From Seison nebaliae (taxonomy: Eukaryota), in assembly GCA_023231475.1 (NCBI GenBank), contig JALJEE010001544.1, forward strand, positions 62,001-126,000: 64,000 bases of DNA. Reading direction: 5' to 3'. The notes under the pieces were generated by a model. It saw only the letters and a list, made by a program, of their open reading frames with translations, ran no database searches and had not been told where the DNA came from. The stretch's first letter is position 1, and each line of letters starts with the position of its first letter. This document shows positions 28,854 through 64,000 of this stretch, in pieces. Both the position numbers and the translations under genes were made by a program.

Positions 28854-30750
28854 ATGATGAATATTCATCGAAATTTATTGGAATTACGATTCGGTTCTCA
28901 TGAATATTCGACGTTGAATGGACGACGGAGAAATGGAACAAACAAGTATTTCCAGACAATTTACAATCGATATCTCTTTAAAAGAACATTAGATAATTTG
29001 ATTCCACTTCCTTCTCCAACTTTATCTAAATATTCAATAACTGAAATGAAATTGGAGACGATGGAAAATCGATAGTTATTCATCACACATTCCATTCTCA
29101 TTCACCTTCTCCCTCCCCTCTAGTCTGATGGTTGGAAATGTGAACGGTGAGATATCTCTGTTGGATTTGAAGAGAATTCGTAAAGGAAAATTCCAACGAA
29201 AACGGAAAGAAAAATTTGAGGTGAAAGAAAACGATTATGAGAATCAATTTCCTATCACTTGTCTCAAATGGAATAAATTCACAAGCGAAATTGACATCAG
29301 TACTGGTAATGGAGAATTCATCGAATTTGATGTACGTCGATGGCAAGTGAAAAGGAAAATGAATAATTTAAATAAATCGAAAAATACTTCGACAATTTTC
29401 ATGAATGATTCGAATGAATTTTTGAGGAATACCGTTCTCCTCACTATGTCCAATGGCGGTTATGGAATTTATGACAGACGTACAGGTGGAGTAGTTGATA
29501 ATGTGATGAAGAATGTTCATAATCATTTAATCGATCAATCATCGACAGAGAATTATCGTCGGAATGGAATTTCCGTTTTGAAATTCCATAAGAAATTCAT
29601 TAATATCGTTACGTCAGCAGGATTTGATGGTCAAATTAAGTTTTGGGATATCCGTTTCACCAATCATCCACTGGATGTGTTAGGATCACAATATGATTTC
29701 GTTCAATTTGATGATATCGATTCGACAGCACATAAATGGCCGATAATTTCCTTAGAATTTTTAAATGATGGAAATCATTTGATTTCAATGGATATTTATG
29801 GAACTGTAAAATTATGGAAATTATCTGATAACACTCCAACAACAATGATAAGAACATCGAACAATTCTGATAATACTTCAACAAAATTATTGAGAACTTT
29901 CAATTCTGATAATATTTCATCCTCAACAACAACAACAACAACATCATCGAAAATTTGTATTTCTGATATTTCATCAAAAAATTATTTTTCGAGTGATCGA
30001 GAATATTTTCCATCATATGAAGAATTTCCATTAATAATTAATGAATCGAAAAGGAAATCGAATAAATGTTTCCCTTTAATGAAGTCGATCGATATTATTC
30101 ATTTGAGCACAGATAATTTGAACAATTTATCCGAATTCATGAATGAGAGAAAGTTTTTAGGAGAATATCTTTTAATTCCGTCGACTAATGGAAATTTGAA
30201 TATCATCGATATGTTGAGTGGGAGATGTGTAAGAGAATTGAAATCACATTTCTCTCCTATTACTTCACTTTGTCAATTGACGACGAATAAATCATTCGAT
30301 CCATTAATTACCTCATTCATTTCCAGTTCTTATGTTGACGGAACAAATATTTTATGGAAAGCAAAAGATTTCGAAGATATTCTCACTTATCCCGTTCAGA
30401 CATCTCAAGAAACTTATTTAACTAAACAACAATTACGAATCGATTCTATTTCTCAACAGATTTGTCGTGACGAATTAATTGAAAGAAATTGGGAAAAATC
30501 AAATTATCGAATTCAATCCGAATCTCATAAATATGAAACATCATTCCAAAATTCATTAAAATCTTTATTTCCTAATCAACAATTTCTGTCGGTAATGGAA
30601 GAAGGAAAATTAATTGGAAATCAAAAGAGACCATCAAATAATATCGAAGAGATTCTCATGGAAATTGATAGAGAAAAAAAATTATATTCTAATAAAATTC
30701 ATTTGTTCGAAGATAATTGGTCAGATGATAATGATATTGACATCGATTAA
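28854..30750 (+). CDS. ERCC8: ERCC8/CSA-like WD40 protein, 2 exons
   Basis: MKLETMENRY|LMVGNVNGEISLLDL, SAGFDGQIKFWDIR, SGRCVRELKSHF and terminal FEDNWSDD resemble CSA. Confidence 0.7.
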
Positions 30751-30872
30751 TATTTCTTCCTTTTTCTATTTCGAACTTTTTCAAAATTTTCTTATTTTCT
30801 TACAATTTTTTTTAAGTTTTTAATTTTGTTCAAGATTTTGTAGAATATTTTTTGAATAAAACAGAAAAGAAA

Positions 30873-32935
30873 ATGGTGAAAGGAAAACCATTTAGTTCGA
30901 AACAGAAACGTGAGCAATTGAGGAGAAGACGGGAAAGGAAACAAAATAAAAATCGTTGAAATTTGAAAATCTGAAATTCTTTCAAATATTCTTTTTTAGA
31001 GGATTCATCAGATGAAAATGAGAACGATGATGAGAAGACAATTCCAGTGAAAAGGACTCCATTAGAAATTCAAAAGATTAATGAATGTAAGAAAATTGGG
31101 AAGAATTGTAAAGTAATTTCGAAAAATTATAATCCCAATCGATATCGATTACACTTCTTTGCGGAAAGTAAAGAAGATATGAAAATGAAACGATTAGCAG
31201 CAAATGAGAAAATTCAAATGAAATCAATTAGTGATCTGATAATTGAACCTTCCCAATATTTCATCAAAGAAGAAGAGAAAACATTTCCCAAACGTCCATC
31301 ATGGTCTGACGATTGGAGTAAAACAAAATTGGATGAAGTTGAGGAGAAATATTTGAATGATTTCGTTCAATCCTTAATCGACGACGACGAACAGTTGAAG
31401 AAGTTGGGATATTTCGAATTGAATTTGGAAACTTGGAGACAATTTTGGAGAGTCGTCGAAATGTCTGATATTATTCTCATGGTGACAGATATGAGATTTT
31501 CAGTTAATAATTATCTTTCTACTCTTATTTTTTTGTTTTTAAAAATTTCTTAATTTTATGGAAAAGTTTTTGAAATTTTTTTTTCTGAAACATTTTAAAT
31601 GAAATTTTTTTGTTTGGAAATATTTTCCCATAAAATTCTTAATCGAATTTTTTTTAATATTTTAAGATGTTTCAAATGAATGATTCGATTTACAATTATT
31701 TGGTGAATGAGAAGAAAAAAGAATTATTTTTGGTTTTAAATAAAATTGATTTATTACCAACTCCCTTAGTGATTGGATGGTATGATTATTTCCAGAAACG
31801 ATATCCGAAAATTAAAATAATTTTCTTTTCATCGTTTCCAATTGAAATTATGACAAACGAGAAATTATCGAAAAGACAATTGACGAATCTTCGATTTCAT
31901 TCGAGACGGTATTCATTGGGTCCATTGGAATTCGTGAAATGTTTAGAATCGTATGTAGAACGACGTCAAGAAGCAGGATTTATGGATGTTGACATTGATG
32001 AGAAATGGAAAAATTCGATGAAGGATCGATATCGAAAAAATCAAATGAATTTAACAGAGATAAATTTAAGAGGAAAAGAAGAAGATAATTTGAATGAATT
32101 TCACGAATTAATCAATTCGAATCTATTGACAATTGGATGTATCGGTTTTCCTAATGTTGGAAAATCGACAGTGATCAATTGTTTGAAAGGAAAGAAAGTG
32201 GTAAGTGTTTCAAGAACTCCAGGACATACGAAATATTTCCAGACAATTCATTTAACAAAAACGATTCGATTATGTGATTGTCCTGGATTAGTTTTCCCGT
32301 CTTTATGTCCAAAAACATTACAAATTTTATCGGGTGTCTATCCGGTAGCTCAAGTTCGTGAACCGTTATCAGTGGTACAATATCTAAGTGAACATTTGAC
32401 GGACGAAAAGAAAAATATGAGAATTATCAATTTACTCAAATTAAATCATTCGTCAGTGAAAGAGATTATGGAAGATTTGGATTTTGAGGAATGGTCTGCC
32501 TCCGCCATCTGTCAGACTTATGCATCGATAAAGAAGTATTTTTGTGGGAAAGGTCAAGTGCCGAATGTGCATAAAGCGGCAAATGAAATAATTAAACTTT
32601 CGTTGGAAGGAAGAAAAAATTTACGATTAGTTTTCTATCCGCCAAATTATTTTGATGGTAATTGGGAGACGGATAGGAGAACGTTGGAATTGGAGAAGTG
32701 TTTGAAAAGGAATGCTGCCGCTATTTGTGAATATTCGAATTTATCAGATATTCCATTTCATCAGGATAATATAGATTTATTAATTAACAATTCTGATGGG
32801 GAAATTAGTGAAGATGAATCTTCAATTGAAGATGATACTGACAATGAAATTGAAAAAGAATTAGATGATACAAATGAAATTAATGAAAAATTTCAAAATA
32901 TAACAACAACAACAATAATAACAATTGATGAATAA
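30873..32935 (+). CDS. GNL1: GNL1/HSR1 circularly permuted GTPase, 3 exons
   Basis: MVKGKPFSSKQKREQL, NPNRYRLHF, YFELNLETWRQFWRVVEMSDI, NKID, GFPNVGKS, SRTPGHTKYFQT and DCPG. Confidence 0.92.
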
Positions 32936-34609: not shown

Positions 34610-35437
34610 ATGTCAACGAATATGTTAGACATCGAAGTCGGTACTATCCGATTGAGAGATGCCAATATCGTAACTCTGACAATTGATGGTGAACAACGAC
34701 TATGTTTAGCACAAATATCGAACTCGCTACTTTACAATTATACTTATAATGAAATCCACAATCGACGTGTGGCTCTCGGAATATTGTGTGTTCAATGTAC
34801 TCCCCCACAACTCGAAGTACTTCGAAGATATAATGCTCTCCCACCCACATCTCGTCGTTGTGGTATGATATCGTTGAAGGAAGCGAAACGATTAATAACT
34901 TCATTTTTAGATGAGCCAAAACCGTTGAATTTAGATAAAAATTATTCGTTTCAAGTTCGACATTCGTGTGCTTGGGGAGCTTTCGGTTCGTTTCAACCCA
35001 ACAAATATTCCAGTTCACGTGCTAAATGTATCGAATGTTATACGTGTCACAATTTATTCTCTCCAAATAAATTCATATTTCATTCTCATAAGAAAGAGGC
35101 CGCGAAACCCGACGAATATGTACAACCGAATGCTGCTAATTTTAACGCATGGAGGAGGCATCTCCAACTAATTATTCCGTCGAATATCGAAACGAATTCG
35201 GATGAATATGAATCTTTTTTATCTCAATGGGAAGATGTTAAATCGATTTATAATGGCGGTTCTCGCAAACGAACAATGAATGGAAATGATTCGAAACGAC
35301 TTTATCAACTGAATGAAAAAGAAGAGAATTTCAATCGACTTTGTGTGAAATATTTGAAAGGAGAGAATGAATTGAAATCGGAATGGAGGAAGGACGAATC
35401 CAAATCATTTACAATTGACTCGATTATTTCATCATAA
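34610..35437 (+). CDS. SKOR: SKI-family transcriptional corepressor (SKOR/Fussel/CORL), short and intronless
   Basis: RLCLAQISNSLL...YNEIHNRRVALGILCVQCTPPQLEVLR...SRRCGMI, plus SAND-like YSSSRAKCIEC...FSPNKFIFHSH...AANFNAWRRHL. Confidence 0.92.
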   Translation: MSTNMLDIEVGTIRLRDANIVTLTIDGEQRLCLAQISNSLLYNYTYNEIHNRRVALGILCVQCTPPQLEVLRRYNALPPTSRRCGMISLKEAKRLITSFLDEPKPLNLDKNYSFQVRHSCAWGAFGSFQPNKYSSSRAKCIECYTCHNLFSPNKFIFHSHKKEAAKPDEYVQPNAANFNAWRRHLQLIIPSNIETNSDEYESFLSQWEDVKSIYNGGSRKRTMNGNDSKRLYQLNEKEENFNRLCVKYLKGENELKSEWRKDESKSFTIDSIISS

Positions 35438-35516
35438 TTTTATTGATTCCACTTTTTTTCTTTTTTAAAAATTATAAAATTTAGTCAATGTCTTCATTTA
35501 ACTAACGAGAACGACG

Positions 35517-38500
35517 ATGGATGTCGAACATGATACATATCCGGAATTGAATAATTTTGCTGTTCATTTACCTGACCTTGTCGTTCAACAACGAGAGAGA
35601 AATATCTATCCATTCGGTATTTCATATAATGCCGTCGTTCTATTTGCTGATGTGTCTGGATTTACTAAATTAACGGAAATCTATTCGAATGACGTTCAAC
35701 GAGGTGTTGGCCATTTGACTCGTCTATTGAACAATTATATTGGTGGTCTCGTCCGAATTATGATGTTGCATGATTGTGATGTACTGAAATTTGCCGGGGA
35801 CGCTATTCTAGGATTTTGGCCAATTAGTCAACATAGCCAAGGAATCACAGACACCAAAATTAAAGAAACTTTAGAATTGGCTATATTATGTGCACGTTCG
35901 ATGCAACACGAATATGGAGATTTCGATACTCCCGTAAATACGAAATTGCACGTCAAAATCTCATTAGCATACGGCGATTGTCATATGATATTCATCCAAT
36001 CACAAAATAAAGAAGATCATTTCTGTCATTATGTTACTGCTGGCGAATCGGTGGCTGATGCAAATGTCGGTGAAAGTTATTGTAGTGCGGGTGACGTAAT
36101 GATATCTCCAAATACCTGGAAATTAGTGAATGCCCCTGATTATAAATATGAATATCTCTCACAAACGAATGGTCATGTTAAAGTTAAGAAATTTCTATTG
36201 TTCTATTATCATCAAAATAATTTCTCATTGAATTTGAAAGATAAAGGAAATTGTTCGATTTACCACCAGTATGTTGCAGAAGACACGTCAAATTAATGCA
36301 GATAGATTGAAGGATGCCGAAACGGCCACAATTCGATTGAGACATTTAGCGATCAAGAAAATATATCCGAATGTCGATAAAGAATTATGGAAATTTGTCA
36401 TAAAACCGGTTCGACAAAAAATTAGTGAAAAAATTTCATCCAGTTTCCTCAACGAATTAAGACAAGTTTAAAAATTGTTTTGACAAAATTATTCTCTACT
36501 AAATTATTCAGGTGACGATTGTTTTTGGTACGATGCAAATTGATCAAAGAAATACCTTAGGAACTTTAGCCGGTAATGTCCAACATGTATTCAAAGTGAT
36601 TCATGAAAGAATTTCTTTAGCTAAAGGTTCATTTTCTTTATATTCCTTAAATGAATATTTTGAAATAATTTTAACAAAACAATTTTTCAGGCATTGTAAC
36701 GAAAGTAATGATGTTTGATAAAGGATGTTCATTTCTTTGTGCTTTCGGTCTTCCCGGTTTCAAACAAGATAACGATTGTGCAAATGCGCTGCATTCATCA
36801 TTCTTATGTTTCAAAGAGTTGAAATTGTTGACTTTTGTGAAAAATTGTGCATTTGGTGTTACAACCGGTTTGACTTTTTGTGGAACTGTGGGACATGCTC
36901 TCCGTCATGAATATACTGTAATTGGACGAAAAGTGAATATGGCGGCTAGATTGATGACTAATTATCCTGATATAGTCTCTTGTGACAGTGAGACAAAATT
37001 GCAGGCACGTGCCAATGACGAAAATTTCCATGAATTAGAAAGGAAGATCTTGAAAGGAATGACGAAATATGGAACTTGTTATTCGTATGATGAGACAAAT
37101 ATTGAGAAAGTGAATCAGGAAATAAAGAAATTTAATTTGCCGATTTTGAATCAAGAAGCTGAAATTAAAATTTATGAAGAAGCAGTTAAGAATTTGTCGA
37201 TATTCCTCCCGAATAAAACCATTTCCCGAATTAATTATTTGAGGAAATACTCAAGTAGTAATAATAATGTCAGTATGATCGTTTATTATGGTGATGCGGG
37301 AATGGGCAAAACGAGAATTCTCGACGCACTTCTCAGTTTAGCTGGTGTTGACACACATTTCTTCGCGTATAAAGCACCGGTAAATTTCTCGACTGTCGGT
37401 CTTCATACGATCGGAAAGATAATAAAGTCATTCGTGAAAGTTGATCCATATCTCAAAATTCTACCTCCAAATTTAGAGTTAATGAAATCATTCGAGAATA
37501 TGGTGTCTTTAGTATTGAAACAATGCGAAATTGATGGTCGTGAGAAGATCATTGGACAATTGTTGGATGGACGACGAGTAATACCATCGTTGATTGAGAG
37601 ATCGTTATTGCCAACATTGATGGAAGATCTAACTGAAGAAATTAAGACGATGGCCGATTTAAAGAAATTTTATCATTATGTTCGAATGAATTCTCTAACA
37701 AAGTCAGAAAAAGATCAACCGAATGAAACACCAAGTGGTTATTGGATTGAACTTCTAGTGAGAATTTTATTGATGAGAAGTTCATCTCGATTAACTATTG
37801 TCATCGTTGATGATGCTCAATTTATTGACGAAGATTCTTGGCCTTTCCTACCTCTAATTGGCGATTCGCCACATTCGTTAATCGTTCTCGCTTATCGTCA
37901 AAGCGAATTACCTTCAAAAGTATCCGAATATGTAAAGAAATTAGGAAAAAAGAAATCGATTATTGTGAGGAAATTATCAGCATTTGATGAATGTTTAACA
38001 TTACATTTAGCTTGTCAAAAACTTAATGTTGTTGCCGTACCGAGAACTTTAGTGAAAATTCTCATTGATAAAAGTAGCGGGGTACCAGCATGGATTGAAT
38101 ATCTAATAAATGATTTTAAAATAAATGATTATATCACCATTGAACCAGGAAGGATATCGAAAGATGAAGCTATTAAAATGGAATTACAATATATGGAATC
38201 AGCTGAAATTTTTGTGAATTCTCATCAGGTGCCAGAAGCTTATTGTAATTTCTCGAAGAATTTCGATTTACTCTCTTTGGAATTACCTGATAGTTTAGCT
38301 GACCAAGTGATAGCTCGAATTGATAAGTTGACGGAATTGGAAGCAAGTGTATTGAAATCGGCTTCTTTATTGGGTGGATCATTTTCACGAATGCTTCTCG
38401 TCAATTCAATGCCGACAATGTCCATCGAACAAACAAATATTCACATTAGTTCTTTGTTTAAGAATATGGTTTTCGAATGTGCATCACCAGCACCAAATAA

Positions 38501-49653: not shown

Positions 49654-50817
49654 ATGTATCGTGCGAGTAAATTCGATCCGAAAGAATTAGGATTGTCAGT
49701 TGATTTTCAATTGACGTCGTTCTCCAAATTGAAAGGATGAGGATGTAAGGTACCGCAGTCAGAATTAGATAATCTCCTGCGGAAAGTTAAATCAACATTC
49801 GACGACAATTTCAACGATAAAACTAATGGTGAAGGAGACCATTCGAAAGTGCAAGGAATTGGACTAGACACATCTATAACTCCATTATCTCAGAAGAATT
49901 TATACATGATCCAATCAACTGATTTCTTCTATCCTCTAATTAATGATCCTTTCCTAATGGGAAAAATTGCTTGTGCCAACGTTCTCAGTGACGTATACGC
50001 GACCGGAGTACAACGAATCGATAATCTTCAAATGATTCTCACTCTCTCCATCGACATGAATAAAGAGCAACGCTCCAAAATTATTCCTCTATTAATCGAT
50101 GGATTTATTGAGCAGACGAAATGTGCAAAAACCGTCGTGAGCGGTGGCCAAACGGTGAACAATCCATGGATCACTATCGGAGGAACAGTGACGAGTATTT
50201 GTGATGAGTCGGAATTTATCCGTCCAATTAATTCTACTCCTGGTAACGTTCTCGTTCTAACAAAACCACTTGGTACTCAAGTTGCAGTGAACGCTTATCA
50301 ATGGATGATGGAAACGAAGATGGAAAATGAACAGAACGAGATTTTTATTGACTTCTTTAATAAAATCTCACCTATCATCACTAACGAACAAATCGTGGAA
50401 TTATATGATAAAGCTGCTAACCAAATGGCAAGTCTTAATGATATCGGTGCACAATTAATGCACAAATATTGCGCAAATGCAGCAACCGATATTACTGGAT
50501 TTGGCCTATTAGGACATGCTAAAAATTTAGTAGCCGAACAAAATAAATCGGTTAATTTCAAATTCCACACAATGCCATTTTTGGAACATTCGTTGGCCGT
50601 AGATAAAGTTCTTGGTGGAATGTTCAAATTGGAAAATTTCCTCTCAGCTGAAACGAGTGGTGGTCTCCTCATCTCACTACCAAACATATCAACAGCGAAA
50701 GATTTCATTGATGATTATCTCAAAATAAAAGGCTATCCAGCTTGGATAGTCGCCGATGTCGTAGAAGGAAATAGAAATGTTGAATTTTCTTCAAATATAA
50801 AATTTATAGAATGTTAA
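49654..50817 (+). CDS. SEPHS2: Selenophosphate synthetase 2, selenoprotein with in-frame TGA at 49738-49740
   Basis: ATG 49654 gives MYRASKFDPKELGLSVDFQLTSFSKLKG-TGA-GCKVPQ in frame with ORF 49849-50817 (TDFFYP, GKIACANVLSDVYA, GGQTV, LTKPLGTQVAVNA, ATDITGFGLLGHA, ETSGGLL). Confidence 0.93.
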
Positions 50818-57494: not shown

Positions 57495-59404
57495 TCAATA
57501 ACGTCTTCCTCCTCCACCCATTCCAAAATTCTGATTTGTTCGTTTCCTAAAAGTTCCACCTCGCGAATATCTACTATAATTCTTTCCAGACATCGGTTGG
57601 CGGATGGAATATAATTCTTCAGGAATAATTTGATTCGCCTCTTTCATCACATTGATCAAATTGCGAATATGTCGAGCGTTATCTTGAGTGAAGAATGTAT
57701 AAGCGATACCTCTATTTCCAGCTCTTCCGGTACGACCGATTCGATGAATATAATCTTCCGTGTCATTTGGGAAATCATAATTAATCACAAACGAAATATC
57801 ATCAATATCTTTTAAAAAAAAAGTTTGAAAATAGAAAAAGTTGAAAAATTAACCTAATCCTCTTGACGCGACATCAGTTGCAACTAGAGCGATAGAATCA
57901 GTAGCACGTTTAAATTCTGGAAAAATTTCAAAAATAAAATAATAAAATTAAAAAATGTTCAACTGTTCAACATTCCTTCACGAACATCTTGTGATTTGTC
58001 ACCATGGATACCGATAGCTTTATATCCCCAAGAACGGATATTTCTTGCCAATTCATCTACTTTCACTTTCCTCTCACAAAATATGATGGTTTTTTGTTTC
58101 TCTTTTTCAGTAATTGTTTTGAGAATTTGTTGGAGACGTTCTTCTTTTTCATGTTCTAACAATAAAATAACTTTTTGTTCAATGTCATGATTCGCTGTTA
58201 ATTCTAATCCACCAATAGTAATATGAATATAATCTTGAATATAATTCGTTGCCAAACTAACAACTTCTTTGGGCCATGTAGCTGAAAACATCATCGTCTG
58301 TCTAGTTGGACGCATCTGTCCTAATATCTGTTTAATTTGTGGTTCGAATCCCATGTCCAACATTCGATCTGCCTCATCCAATACCAAATAAGTGACTTCA
58401 TCAATTATTATTCGACGTGTCGTTATAAAATCAATTAATCGACCAGGTGTAGCTATCAAAATATCTACACCAAATCTGAAAGTTTCCAATTGTTCTCGAC
58501 GTGGTGCTCCACCATAACAACACGCAGTTCTGATTCTTTTCGACTCTGAAAACAATTTGGCAACTTGATGAATTTGTTGAGCTAATTCTCTGGTGGGAGC
58601 GAGAACGAGACATCTAGGACGATTTTTTGTTGATGTTCGTTCATTTCCTTGAAGATGACGAACTGCTGGTAAAAGGAAAGCCATAGTTTTTCCACTACCA
58701 GTTTGAGCGATTCCAACCACATTCGAACCATTCATTAATAGAGGCCATGCCACACTCTGAATACATGTTGGTCTTTCATATTTGGCTTTTTCGAAAACTT
58801 CCATCAAATCTTTCTGAAGATTCATTTCTTCGAATGTCATAATTGGTTTATTCACTTCCATTTGACAAGTGGCTGTTTTCGTTATCGATAATTGATTTTT
58901 TACACGGAATTCATTCAATTCTTCAGGTTGTCGATTTTTTGTTATTTCACTCTCCAAATAAAATTCTTTCTCGAAATCGGCTATTGGAATTTTGGAGAAA
59001 TCGATCGGAATTAATTGACCATTTTCCTGTGGCAAAGGTGTCCAATTCGAATTTCCTCTATTATTATTATTATTATTATTATTATATCCATTTCGATCGT
59101 TATTATTATTATTATATCCGTTTCTATCATTGTTATTATTATATCCATTTCTATCATTATTATTATTATATCCATTTCGATCATTATTATTATTATATCC
59201 ATTTCCGTTTCGATAACTATTATTTCCATTTTCTCCATTACCTCCCCAATTATTAGAGGGACGTCCACGATCCCCATTATATCGATTATTCTGTGGTCGA
59301 TTGAATCTTTCAGTCCGATAATGGGAAGATCTACTGGGAGGAGAATGATTACTTCTCGACCGATATCTCGATTGGTTACTATCTTCACCATTCATTTCTG
59401 TCAT
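57495..59404 (-). CDS. DDX5: DEAD-box RNA helicase DDX5/DDX17/Dbp2-like, 3 exons
   Basis: [63 protein letters not shown] and [12 protein letters not shown]. Confidence 0.85.
59060..59210. repeat. Coding tandem repeat (~24 nt unit, RNGYNNNND) in the helicase N-terminus
   Basis: Five NGYNNNN units are visible in both DNA and translation. Confidence 0.9.
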
Positions 59405-59772
59405 TTTTTTTTTATCAAGACAAGTACACTAAAAATTATTGAAGTTGTTGTTCTAATTTATCTTTATTTCCAATCCACATGCAACAACTAAAATTTTAAA
59501 ATTTTCTCTTTTATTTTTCATATTCCTTCCAATTTTCATTTCACAATTTTCAAATCTTAAGCTTTTACCACCACGCTAAATTACACTTACTAATTTCCAA
59601 ATTACAACATGCTTTTCATTATTATACTTCAAATTTTAATTAAACATATTACCGTTAGATTATTATTAGTTAACATACATATTTCAAGTAAAATATTTTA
59701 AAATTAGTAGACAGAAGAAATTTGGTTATTTTTATTTTTTTTAAAAAATTTATTATTTGAATATCTGAATAT

Positions 59773-59968
59773 GGATGTATACTTATATGGTTTTCCCGCT
59801 TTCGATAGATGACGAATTAGGGTCGATGGAAATATGGTATGAAATTTAATATATGATGTTATCGTTAGCAGATACTTCATTAGAAAGTGAATTCTGTCTG
59901 AGACGATAAAGTTTATGAGAGATCTCTCAACAAAAATTCCAAAGGAAAATTTGGAAAGACTTCTCAAG
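59773..59968 (-). ncRNA. SNORA73: U17/snR30-type H/ACA snoRNA, copy B (5' end approximate)
   Basis: H-box-like ATATTA (59852-59847), m1-like ATATTTCCA (59835-59827), m2 AAACCAT (59793-59787), basal stem, ACA (59778-59776). Confidence 0.75.
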
Positions 59969-60095
59969 AGTCACATCAAAAAATATTTTTAGGAAAATAA
60001 ATTTCTTCCCGAAATTCCTTCAATTCATTCCGATATCGACGATCTATAAAATATTAAAGAATTAGTTATTTCATCTATAAATATAATCAGAAGAC

Positions 60096-60295
60096 AAATG
60101 TTAGTGATATGGTTTCCCAAGCATCCATCGTAATCGAATGTTATGGTTGATGGAAATATCATTATAAAATTTGATCTGGGATGATGTTATTGCAAAGGTC
60201 TGTATGAAGAACAGTTTTGTCAAAAAATAACGAGACGAATAAATGATCTCAACTAAAATCGAACAAGTTCAAATCTAGGAAATCTCTCATTCTTT
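60096..60295 (-). ncRNA. SNORA73: U17/snR30-type H/ACA snoRNA, copy A (5' end approximate)
   Basis: H-box-like AGATCA (60177-60172), m1-like ATATTTCCA (60159-60151), m2 AAACCAT (60115-60109), stem TGATAT/ATATCA, ACA (60101-60099); about 200 nt. Confidence 0.78.
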
Positions 60296-60443
60296 TCATC
60301 CGAATGGAAATATGAAGTTTTTGAAAAATTGAAACTAACATCAAATTTATTGAAATTAATATTCTGACGAATTCATAGTGAAAATCTAAAAAACAAAAAA
60401 AAATTAATAATCAGTAAGATAATTTCTATGGTATATTTATTAA

Positions 60444-60553
60444 TATTTCAGAATGTAGACTGTGCATCTTCAACGAACTAAAGGAAAGATGTCTATGTTG
60501 GAATTGTTCTCAGAAGACCATCGTGATAGGAAATGACATTATTATCACCAATG
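60444..60553 (-). ncRNA. SNORD35: U35/snR73-type box C/D snoRNA, copy 1 (divergent)
   Basis: C-like GTGATAA, guide TCACGATGGTCT followed by T and D' CTGA, C'-like TTGAAGA, D CTGA (60451-60448). Confidence 0.75.
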
Positions 60554-60713
60554 TTTTAGGAATAATGTGTAGAGAATAAATGAAAAATACAAACGTTTTA
60601 AAAATTTTCAAGTTAAGTTAAATCATGTCCGAAATGAGTCTAAAAATGATATAAAAAAAATCATTAAATCAATTCGAATAATAATTGAAATATGTTTTTC
60701 AAAATTATTTTAA

Positions 60714-60822
60714 ATAATCAGATTAAAATATTTTTCTACTTCATAAAACGAATTAAATGATGTCGATGTTGGATTTGTTTTCAGAAGACCATCGTGAAAT
60801 GAAAAATTTATCATCACCAATA
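60714..60822 (-). ncRNA. SNORD35: U35/snR73-type box C/D snoRNA, copy 2
   Basis: C GTGATGA (60817-60811), guide TTTCACGATGGTCT, D' CTGA (60784-60781), C'-like ATGAAGT, D CTGA (60721-60718). Confidence 0.85.
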
Positions 60823-60974
60823 TTCGAGGAATGATTTGAAGAATAAATAAAAATTACAAACCGTTTTATAGTTAAATATTAAATCATGTCCGAAATGAGT
60901 CTAAAAATGATATAAAAAAAATCATTAAATCAATTCAAATAATAATTGAAATATGTTTTTAAAAATTATTTTAA

Positions 60975-61083
60975 ATAATCAGATAAAAATATTTTTGTAC
61001 TTCATAAAACGAATTAAATGATGTCGATGTTGGATTTGTTCTCAGAAGACCATCGTGAAATGAAAAATTTATCATCATTCAAG
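60975..61083 (-). ncRNA. SNORD35: U35/snR73-type box C/D snoRNA, copy 3
   Basis: C ATGATGA (61078-61072), guide TTTCACGATGGTCT, D' CTGA (61045-61042), C'-like ATGAAGT, D CTGA (60982-60979). Confidence 0.85.
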
Positions 61084-61235
61084 AAATGAAAAAAAAAAAA
61101 AAGAATAAAAACCTTTTAGAAAAAATATGTCAATTCTATCTGAACAGGAAAATCTAAATAAAAATTGTGTAAAAATTTTGTTAAGGAAGGACGAAAATTT
61201 TATTAAGATGACAATAAAAGTGATCGATTAATAAT

Positions 61236-61907
61236 TTATTTTCCTGGCATAACAATTCCTTCATACTGAAATGAAATAGAGAAGAAGAAAAAGAAGAATT
61301 TAGAGTAACTTTTAGTTTGAACCATTTAATTGCATCAGCTTTATTTAAGATATGATTTCTTCCTATTCGATTTCGTTGTTTCTTTCGATAGGAGACATTG
61401 TATCCTGGTCGATCCAAAACAACATAGAAATCTAAGCCATAAATACCGATGGCGGGATCGTATTTAATACCCAAATCGATATGTTCCTGAATACCGAACC
61501 CAAAGTTGCCTTGTGGAGTGAAATTACTTTCTTTCAATTCGAATTCTTTCACCTTAACAATGAACAAAGAATGGAATAATGAGAAATGGATAGAACTTTC
61601 AATCCCTTTTCAAGGATGTCATGCGCCTTCTCTCCTCGAATTGTACAATGCACCGCAATTTTCTCATTACGACGGATACCGAACGATCGAACTGTATATC
61701 TGGCCTTCGAAAATACAGGAACTTGTTCTGTCAGTTGTTCCAAGACTTTGGAGGCACGAGTCAATCTATCACCCGATTCTCCCACCGATATATTCAGGCA
61801 CAATTTCCTGATTCGTACATTTTTCATCACATTCTCATTTTGTTCCTATTAAATTTCCTAAAATAGTGAATGAGACGAGGATACAAATCAAAGATACGAA
61901 CGTCCAT
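61236..61907 (-). CDS. RPL11: 60S ribosomal protein L11 (uL5), 4 exons
   Basis: [41 protein letters not shown]...GLK|VKEFEL...[11 protein letters not shown]...[13 protein letters not shown]. Introns 61846-61901, 61553-61596 and 61266-61309. Confidence 0.97.
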
Positions 61908-62533
61908 TTCGAATAAATTTCTTTTTGAAAAGAATAATGTAATGAATCTTACAAAGTACTCAAGACTCTGTTGTTGTTTGGGAAGTAGTGAGGTTATTTC
62001 AAATACACAAATGTGACTATCGAATAAATATCAATATTTCTTGAATTAAAGAAGAAAAGATATTTTCAAAGTTTAAAAATTAAGCTTTGAGAAAATCGAT
62101 TAAGAAATAGTTATTACTATTTTTTATTATAATATATTTATACAATATTTTATTTAATATTTAATTTGTAAGTAATATTTCATTTTGATCTTCAATTTCA
62201 AATTTGAAAATTATGAAGTCAATTTCTATCCATTTTTATACATCGGAATTATATTTTTGAATTCCAAAAAATTGATTAATCTTTTTTAATCAAGTTGAAT
62301 TACTTTACTCGAATTTTTAATATTTTTGTTCGAATTAAAATTGTTAATTATTGTCATCTACTCGTAAAATGTGCAATCTGTTTCGAATTCCCTTATTATT
62401 AATAATTCTTATTGGATTTAATTTTGGAGTATTGTTTTTAACATTTAATTTTAGAAGAGATTAATGTTTAGAATTTATTAAAATTATTTGAACGAAATGA
62501 AAAGAATATTCATGAATTAAAATTTAATTAAAT

Positions 62534-64000
62534 TTATTCGACGGGAGGAGAGGTTAGGAGTTGAACAACTGTCCGACCATTTGTGTCCATGTTAACCGGT
62601 ATTGTGGACGCTAAAAATAGACGAGAAAAATTAAATTAAAAATAAACTTAATTAATTAACTTTGTAGTAAATGGTCATTTGCTTCGTTGGAATTAATATC
62701 TTCAAATTCTTCTTCATTTGCAGATAATCCATCAATTCCCTCATTCTCTACTTCTTTTAATTCTTGTGGAGTTGTTTTTTGAACCATTTGATTTTCGAAT
62801 AATTCGTTAAGTTTCGTAGAAGTTGAAGCGACACCCCCTAATTCTTTCGACTCATCTATAGTTTTCGTCAATTCTTCTGCTTTTATTCCTCCAGCTAATG
62901 GTCTTTTTATTTCTTTTTTTATTTGCTCTTGTGCTTCTACTTGTTGTACTTGTTCTTGTTCTTGTTGTTCGTGTTCTATTTGTTCTTGTTGTTCTATTTG
63001 TTCTTGTTGTTGTTTTTGTTGATCCTTTATGTTAAATTCTTCTACTTGTTCTCTCGGTAATCTTTCAGATATCTGTTGATTTTCTGTTTCATCTATTTCT
63101 TCAACTGGTTCTTCTTCTGACGACATTTCTACATCTTCCACTGGCGATATGGATTCATCTGGTAACTTAATTTCTTCCACCTTAAATTCTTCTTCTTCTT
63201 CAATTTGATCTTGTTCGTTATCTGAATTTATTTCATTCGTATCTAATGATACAGTTTTGGAAACGGTTTCTTTTTGTGGTTGCTCAGAAATTGACACACC
63301 ATCATCATAATCTGGTATATTATTCGAATTTAAATTATTCGTATATTCTCGGAATGAATTGATTGATTGTAGATCGATGTGATCCTTATATTCTTCTTCT
63401 GACATCATTCCATGATCATTGTTATCGATTGATTCTGAATTGTCACTTGGATGCATTTCTATTTCATTTGGTTTCATCGAATCATATTGTTCATTCTCCT
63501 CCTCCATTGTGTCCATCATTTCTGTAGTTTCAGGATTTCCTTCCGGTTGTTCCATTTCGGCAGTTTCTGCTGTAATAGTTGTCGTTTTTTCCGTTTTCAG
63601 TTCTTCCTTTTTCAGTTTCTTATTCAGTTGCTTCATTTTTCTCCTCAACATCTTCTTCCATTTTCTCTTTAAATTCCTTTTATTTTTTCGAAGTTTTCGT
63701 TTATTTCTCTTCTTTGAATTGACTTTGAGAATGGGCAAAATTTTGATTTGGGGATTGGGTTCTACTATTTGAATTGGCTCAGGATTCATGGCAATTGGAA
63801 CTTTTCCATTTTCCTCCACCAATTTCCATTGCGGATGTTGTCTTGGATTCGTTAACAAATCCTCCAAATTATTCACGTTTTGCTGAACAGGTTTATAAGA
63901 AAAAGTTTCTGGATTGCTTCCCAATAATTGTTGTCGATTATCAATTTTATGATATTTTATTTCTCCCAAATTGTTCGGTATTTCATTATTGAGATCTCTT
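62534..64000 (-). CDS. Partial (3' part) acidic E/Q-rich protein of unknown function; continues beyond the window
   Basis: Frame is open from the window edge to ~62661. A short GTT...TAG intron joins a last exon TSTIPVNMDTNGRTVVQLLTSPPVE*. Confidence 0.7.

Follow-up and report, generated by a model that had tools for sequence, protein, structure and literature searches.

How are small nucleolar RNAs (snoRNAs) expressed from the interval between two protein-coding genes? The question is raised by a 64,000-nucleotide (nt) stretch of the Seison nebaliae genome (contig JALJEE010001544.1, positions 62,001 to 126,000; hereafter the window), in which five predicted snoRNAs, numbered 1–5 in the direction of transcription, lie on the minus strand between RPL11 (uL5) and a helicase gene of the DDX5/DDX17/Dbp2 family (hereafter DDX5). 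The five RNAs are probably processed out of the RPL11 pre-mRNA, from a non-coding 3′ extension in which a 5′ splice site within the last coding exon would compete with the poly(A) signal, and DDX5 is likely a separate unit.

The 3′ end of RPL11 and the host exons

The exons of RPL11 and the helicase match two adjacent public S. nebaliae gene models identically (the translation of RPL11 exon 2 is that of RPL11/uL5 and is 100% identical to SNEBB_003624, and the helicase open reading frame (ORF) is 100% identical to SNEBB_003623); since the two locus tags are consecutive, no annotated gene lies between them. The canonical RPL11 product contains 175 aa and ends in YEGIVMPGK, and the RPL11 introns measure 44–56 nt. 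The AATAAA of RPL11 (61204–61199) is followed after 45 nt by the acceptor TTTTTATTTAG, ending at 61154, as the first-pass annotation of the window had claimed. That annotation had also seen no GTT donor upstream of the acceptor, which proved wrong: GTT donors are situated at 61253, in the last coding exon, and at 61309, and GTT is absent from the stretch between the RPL11 stop codon and the acceptor. Splicing from 61253 to 61154 would make a 100-nt intron.

The donor at 61253 is used in the public protein model P0008 (KAI3384557.1), whose C-terminal end reads YEGI-THFGHDLIFNYKT-THFGHDLT. The model corresponds letter for letter to the RPL11 exons, a junction from 61253 to 60901, the exon 60900–60862, the intron 60861–60640 and an exon starting at 60639; both junctions, 61253–60901 and 60861–60640, are thereby present in it, and the two introns, of 353 and 222 nt, are 5–8 times as long as RPL11's own. 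P0008 forfeits the conserved RPL11 tail, as the unspliced tail of the window, YEGIVMPGK, resembles YDGIILPGK, found in 32 of the 59 homologue tails with the motif (among 120 homologue matches, 59 have the canonical tail, 55 are without the motif and 6 are other). Because a conserved tail was dropped for two introns far longer than the gene's own, it seems likely that P0008 rests on transcript data. The C-terminus of the public RPL11 model is probably wrong, and the proposed 3′ extension would explain it.

Beyond the acceptor, four host exons (41, 39, 45 and 46 nt) are each followed by a GTT..AG intron (212, 222, 209 and 265 nt, respectively), in agreement with the tiny exons and introns of ~210–265 nt noted earlier. 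The exon–intron–snoRNA cassettes are duplicated as had been proposed (period 261–271 nt), with measured spacings of 261 and 271 nt. GTT begins 31 of 35 unambiguous ORF-bridging intron candidates of 38–75 nt, corresponding to 29 of 33 distinct donors, compared with 59% in controls from T-rich sequence (p=1.3e-4); the survey covered 41 acceptors, 6 ambiguous ones were set aside, and some candidates will be false. A survey by distance only (68 acceptors) was weak and was superseded by the ORF-bridging survey. The stop codon of the extended reading frame falls in exon 3, 64 nt ahead of the last predicted junction; with exon 1 included, it falls in that exon.

Across the window, nearly every 5′ splice site is GTT, and little consensus extends beyond it; to our knowledge, such near-uniform GTT donors are unusual for animals. 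In a published BUSCO row, Seisonidea is the only group for which METTL16, the methyltransferase that forms N6-methyladenosine in U6, is given as missing, and a link to the GTT donors is only a guess.

The cassette duplication looks real. Contigs from the DNA runs X1, X2 and X3 span 61112–61990 in one piece without joints, X6 has no match, and these DNA data are silent on expression; the runs may include the source of the window itself. The main X1–X3 contig ends at 61048, 64 nt past the compared stretch, and the first 31-mer common to cassettes 1 and 2 ends at 61047; a contig break at a shared 31-mer would be the behaviour of a true repeat in an assembly graph. The same runs contain a low-depth second haplotype, ~10% divergent, at 61306–61990, whose listed coding differences are spaced in multiples of three.

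C/D and U17/snR30-type RNAs

The three C/D copies are predicted methylation guides of the SNORD35/snR73 type. C, D′, C′ and D boxes are present in the copies, with canonical C and D boxes in copies 1 and 2, and the distances from the D-box end to the last intron base are 78, 78 and 62 nt, exactly as first reported. Copies 1–3 match the Rfam clan CL00056 (snoZ161_228, SNORD35) with E values of 0.002–0.06. The D′ guide pairs with large-subunit (LSU) ribosomal RNA (rRNA) over 14, 14 and 12 bp, its fifth base facing the first C of LSU AGACCGUC; SNORD35/snR73/snoZ161_228 share this guide, and methylation of the same C is predicted. The target C is presumably equivalent to yeast Cm2959. The LSU reference, L002, is eukaryotic LSU rRNA, one of two viral-collection loci matched by a pattern made of both antisense-like elements; from model position 2922 it agrees fully with the Rfam consensus. 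The search pattern guaranteed a pairing match, and the independent fact is that the match falls on the conserved LSU consensus. In addition, an element between D′ and C′ pairs over 12–13 bp ~35 nt upstream; for copy 1, 2 of 2000 shuffles do as well, and for copy 3, 1 of 2000. Such extra base-pairing has been described before, and the yeast snoRNAs listed with it include snR73 (PMC3116282). A screen for this element by duplex energy (107 distinct loci) was too permissive to interpret.

The 17-mer of guide and D′ box occurs 3 times in 64 kb with at most 2 mismatches (shuffle mean 0.01; 0 of 100 shuffles reach 3), and the m1..m2..ACA pattern of the H/ACA RNAs occurs twice (0 of 100 shuffles reach 2); both patterns were derived from the copies themselves, and the tests show recurrence, not function. 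The same C/D guide appears in 126 stretches of a metagenome scan, and 2 of 4 AT-rich loci inspected hold it in RPS11 introns. These two, L083 and L102, come from other AT-rich genomes and carry SNORD35-type guides in RPS11 introns; L083 seems to have two copies in one intron.

The two H/ACA RNAs are very probably U17/snR30, a type that acts in the processing of 18S rRNA. Each copy carries an H box, an m1-like motif and an exact AAACCAT, with ACA following after 7 nt in copy 1 and 8 nt in copy 2; in U17/snR30 this spacing is invariably 7 nt, and yeast tolerated one additional base (PMC2664660). The Seison m1, ATATTTCCATC, is unlike every m1 in the tabulated excerpt of PMC7601244; it reads AUAUUUCCAUC, versus AUAUUCCUA/G/U in known U17, and fits an altered 18S site. 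In the rotifer 18S alignment (PMC8194223, supplement 4), the monogonont row retains the canonical rm1 GGAAT, and the Seison row has lost it; a few bases further along, TGATGGAAA is available there, followed by a short hairpin and an intact TGGTTT. On visual reading, m1 pairs with ES6 of Seison 18S over 9 bp (with one G-U in copy 2) and m2 over 6 bp, in the known order of rm1, hairpin and rm2. The U17 motifs had been noted before the Seison 18S row was read, and the m1/18S compensation independently supports the snR30 pairing model. In the available text of PMC7601244 and PMC2664660, a comparable compensation is given for T. brucei only. From the acanthocephalan 18S row, an m1 ending in UUUCCGUC would be predicted in acanthocephalans.

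The earlier assignment of one snoRNA to each intron holds for RNAs 1–4 and fails for RNA 5 (U17 copy 2). The only GT between the acceptor 60044 and RNA 5 is GTC (60040), and in the alignment GAA stands opposite the paralogous cassette's donor; AATAAA lies 19 nt past the predicted end of RNA 5. That C/D copy 3 and/or U17 copy 2 are decaying duplicates, the array being partly functional, is rather doubtful: copy 3 has a degenerate C box, and U17 copy 2 has no GTT donor and the 8-nt spacing tolerated in yeast, but both retain their rRNA-pairing elements despite 60–73% overall identity, and the predicted fold of U17 copy 2 surpasses those of its shuffles (z −2.87, 2/200). For the 3′ hairpin, in which U17/snR30 has m1 and m2 at the base of the internal loop, copy 1 forms lower and upper stems, and copy 2, under constraints, the upper stem only.

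Table 1. Features of the RPL11–DDX5 interval (positions in the window)
Feature	Position	Strand	Remarks
TCT/TOP-like start motif	61927..61934	−	C at 61932; predicted RPL11 start site; weak
RPL11/uL5 coding sequence	61236..61907	−	4 exons: 61907-61902, 61845-61597, 61552-61310, 61265-61236
Alternative 5′ splice site GTTATG	61248..61253	−	last coding exon, upstream of stop codon; fits GTT donor class; used in public model
Stop codon of canonical RPL11	61238-61236	−	
AATAAA	61199..61204	−	predicted poly(A) signal of canonical RPL11 mRNA
Host exon 1 (41 nt)	61113..61153	−	after acceptor 61154; homologous to other host exons; absent from public model
Intron with C/D snoRNA 1	61112-60901	−	predicted junction
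C/D snoRNA 1	60979..61078	−	guide 61058-61046, D′ 61045, extra-pairing element 61040-61028, C′ 61005, D 60982
Host exon 2 (39 nt)	60862..60900	−	exact part of public model P0008
Intron with C/D snoRNA 2	60861-60640	−	in public model
C/D snoRNA 2	60718..60817	−	96/100 nt identical to copy 1
Host exon 3 (45 nt)	60595..60639	−	carries stop codon of extended frame, 60615-60613
Intron with C/D snoRNA 3	60594-60386	−	predicted
C/D snoRNA 3	60448..60548	−	~73% identical to copies 1 and 2; guide and extra element retained; degenerate C box GTGATAA
Host exon 4 (46 nt)	60340..60385	−	predicted solely from GTT/AG and cassette similarity
Intron with U17/snR30 copy 1	60339-60075	−	predicted
U17/snR30 copy 1 (RNA 4), ~207 nt	60096..60302	−	5′ end approximate; H 60177-60172, m1 60156-60148, m2 60115-60109, ACA 60101-60099
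U17/snR30 copy 2 (RNA 5), ~206 nt	59773..59978	−	H 59852-59847, m1 59832-59824, m2 59793-59787, ACA 59778-59776; likely in terminal exon
Two AATAAA (59754, 59736)	59731..59754	−	predicted end of extended transcript
DDX5/DDX17/Dbp2-family helicase, SNEBB_003623, 605 aa	57495..59404	−	neighbour of array; acceptor-like TTTTTAG ends 59429

Proposed release of the array and its alternatives

In the proposed route, most transcripts would be cleaved after the AATAAA at 61204, giving the normal RPL11 mRNA. In other transcripts, the GTT donor at 61253 would be spliced to 61154 or 60901, so that stop codon and poly(A) signal are lost with the intron, and the short host exons would then be joined in turn. 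The excised introns would be trimmed to snoRNAs 1–4, and RNA 5 would be trimmed from the terminal exon in front of the AATAAA at 59754/59736 (AATAAA occurs 2.2 times per kb per strand in the window). The spliced remnant with its premature stop would be a likely substrate of decay, a fate known for snoRNA host isoforms (PMC7038934). Because the extension would remove the RPL11 stop and tail and its remnant would decay, entry through the last coding exon would make the output of protein and snoRNAs mutually exclusive for each transcript.

The first-pass annotation had envisaged a snoRNA host fed by RPL11 but lacking a donor. The array is very probably fed by RPL11 transcription, whereas the donor-less separate unit is improbable, as a cis donor is available at 61253. 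Cis-splicing from this donor explains the link of the array to RPL11 better than a donor-less trans-spliced unit, so that the array would be the 3′ extension of one gene and not a separate cistron. In the operon alternative, the RPL11 mRNA would end by cleavage after 61204, and a separate non-coding host RNA, with or without DDX5, would receive its cap from a spliced leader joined to 61154. The T-rich acceptor only 45 nt from AATAAA, with no GTT between them, and same-strand spacers of 79 and 122 nt elsewhere in the window fit such an arrangement; spliced leaders are described in rotifers (PMC3795323), and chaetognath operons include ribosomal protein genes (PMC12460157). The operon is nevertheless improbable, as the public model splices from an available cis donor, acceptor-like motifs are not enriched before ATG codons (3 of 12 hand-picked starts against 117 of 814 AT-rich control windows, 14%), and "spliced leader" is absent from the literature matches listed on Seison, acanthocephalans, Brachionus and Adineta.

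Two further routes are less likely than the 3′ extension. An independent host gene of the GAS5/UHG type would have its own start of the terminal oligopyrimidine (TOP) type overlapping the RPL11 3′ end, either CCTTCCTT at 61190 or a C-poly(T) run at 61103. Weak C-initial pyrimidine tracts do occur at 61190/61189 and 61103, and the mammalian U17 host is a non-coding TOP-family gene (PMC7601244); this start is nonetheless highly doubtful, as its promoter would fall in the last exon and intron of RPL11 (only 82 nt separate the stop codon from the acceptor, leaving no room for a promoter outside RPL11), 7 such tracts fall within 220 nt of this T-rich DNA, and the public model joins RPL11 to the host exons. 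RPL11 itself has a TOP-like motif at its predicted start (TCT/TOP consensus YYCTTTYY), a weak one because 3 matches fall within 2.9 kb. The other route resembles the formation of 5′-snoRNA-capped polyadenylated RNAs (SPAs), which involves an exonuclease step: uncapped RNA downstream of the RPL11 cleavage site would be trimmed 5′→3′ to the first protective snoRNP, and splicing would release the later snoRNAs. It needs neither donor nor promoter, the first C box lies ~120 nt past the poly(A) signal, and SPAs are described in human cells (PMC7038934). Such trimming leaves the retained acceptor and donor of exon 1 and the public-model junction unexplained, and SPAs are not conserved even in mouse (PMC7038934), making it most improbable here.

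Several points weigh against a 3′ extension that carries functional snoRNAs. The P0008 tail is possibly a gene-predictor artefact, because odd RPL11 tails occur in other gene models (3 of 120 matches diverge after ILPG/ILPA, and fused models occur too), and the excerpts of PMC8351084, PMC12256650 and bioRxiv 10.64898/2026.06.08.730799 do not state how the public Seison annotation was built. Host exon 61153–61113 is skipped in the public model, and the use of acceptor 61154 is a prediction. In the Rfam scan that had been suggested for the window, 0 matches reach the gathering score in the whole 64 kb: the C/D matches to the clan lie below it (32.2 and 27 bits vs 45 for RF00328; 23.2 vs 36 for RF00211), and no U17/snR30-family match appears even at E≤10. 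The LSU sequence used for the pairing is L002, not Seison's own 28S. For U17 copy 1, the advantage of the fold over shuffles is modest (z −1.48, 18/200), and a two-sequence consensus fold of the U17 copies recovered no shared structure, with misalignment as the cause. RNA 5 has no GTT-bounded intron of its own, and its release therefore needs a second route. A published BUSCO table lists SMG9 as missing and SMG8 as fragmented in Seisonidea, and UTP23 likewise as missing (supplement rows of PMC12256650). The two SMG scores weaken the decay step, and that of UTP23 weakens the U17 partner set; BUSCO misses are common in the divergent Seison genome (51% complete).

Known systems and the helicase neighbour

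The closest precedent is Drosophila minifly (mfl)/Nop60B, a ribosome-related TOP gene with a snoRNA cluster in its alternative 3′ ends; as in Seison, the snoRNAs are duplicated, stand one per intron, and the C/D RNAs lie ~70 nt from the 3′ splice site (PMC1821038). The longer 3′ ends of mfl/Nop60B retain the normal protein, whereas the Seison entry donor lies in the last coding exon, so that the conserved C-terminus is predicted to be lost; the last RNA of the Seison array is also non-intronic, unlike in mfl/Nop60B. GAS5/UHG/U17HG and host isoforms coupled to nonsense-mediated decay share with Seison the tiny non-coding exons, premature stops and one snoRNA per intron (PMC7038934, PMC7601244), but the Seison array appears to be appended to a protein-coding gene and shows no sign of its own promoter. 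Trans-spliced operons, for which nematodes and tunicates provide further cases, differ from the Seison array, to which a cis donor is available. The trans-spliced operons of chaetognaths (PMC12460157) resemble it in the short U-rich spacer from poly(A) signal to acceptor.

In the case of the RNAs, the U17/snR30/SNORA73 family shares the exact m2 AAACCAU 7–8 nt before ACA and the H box (PMC7601244, PMC2664660); the Seison RNAs measure ~206 nt against 207 nt for human U17, and their two copies and host are as in known U17, for which ribosomal-protein introns or a non-coding host are established (PMC7601244). Unlike known U17/snR30, they are missed by Rfam. The Seison C/D RNAs form three tandem copies in the RPL11 3′ extension, whereas the two AT-rich metagenome loci hold theirs in RPS11 coding introns. 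The RNA families are housekeeping ones, and hosting at ribosomal-protein genes is common. The array is real, and it differs from known systems in its predicted entry inside the last coding exon, its probably exonic last RNA and its compensated m1. It provides unannotated U17 and SNORD35 candidates for a seisonid rotifer, and suggests where an animal whose introns measure ~45 nt may accommodate intronic snoRNAs, namely in a 3′ extension reached through the last coding exon. No report of the Seison locus or of an RPL11-hosted U17 was found among the open-access literature matches listed. Among 124 pattern-fetched loci, tblastn gave 0 with RPL11 or DDX5 and the U17 regular expression gave 0 matches; the synteny search is uninformative, with flanks for 80 loci, 27 of 64 parts scanned and none a known rotifer.

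The helicase, whose best solved relatives are DDX17 and Dbp2 and whose paralogue SNEBB_006943 is 50% identical, had tentatively been proposed to be coupled to the RPL11/snoRNA unit, starting ~350 nt after the last AATAAA. The distance is correct (350 nt from 59754 to the ATG, and 332 nt from the second AATAAA at 59736); the coupling finds no support. The 368-nt spacer is A-rich (45% A, 35% T) and thereby resembles the region upstream of RPL11 (41% A, 37% T) rather than the short, T-rich spacers of the window (46–52% T); acceptors before ATGs are not enriched. DDX5 is likely a separately transcribed neighbour, and its co-transcription with the array is unlikely. In a fuller version, a single promoter would serve RPL11, the five snoRNAs and the helicase; a splice-versus-poly(A) switch within the last RPL11 codons would respond to RPL11 or nucleolar load, and the helicase mRNA would be freed by a spliced leader at 59429. 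This version is very unlikely; if true, it would be a self-balancing ribosome-biogenesis operon in a compact rotifer genome, choosing between a ribosomal protein and the essential U17. A trans-spliced operon, if shown, would bear on the spread of operons in Gnathifera. The sequence AACAACAAC, shared upstream of RPL11 and DDX5, was discarded, as it occurs many times in N/Q-coding runs.

Better operon candidates than RPL11–DDX5 are two plus-strand pairs with T-rich spacers. Ski and adenylate cyclase stand 79 nt apart (35437–35517), with a TTTAG without nearby GT, and a WD protein and a GNL1-like GTPase stand 122 nt apart (30750–30873). On the minus strand, tandem repeats of 27–30 nt (59045–59236) encode the low-complexity N-terminus of the helicase, and an acidic, E/Q-rich ORF without a Pfam match lies upstream of RPL11 (62656–64000). 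Finally, a selenophosphate synthetase-like ORF on the plus strand (49654–50817) contains an in-frame TGA in LKG*GCK, likely encoding selenocysteine, and we take it to be of the SPS2 type.

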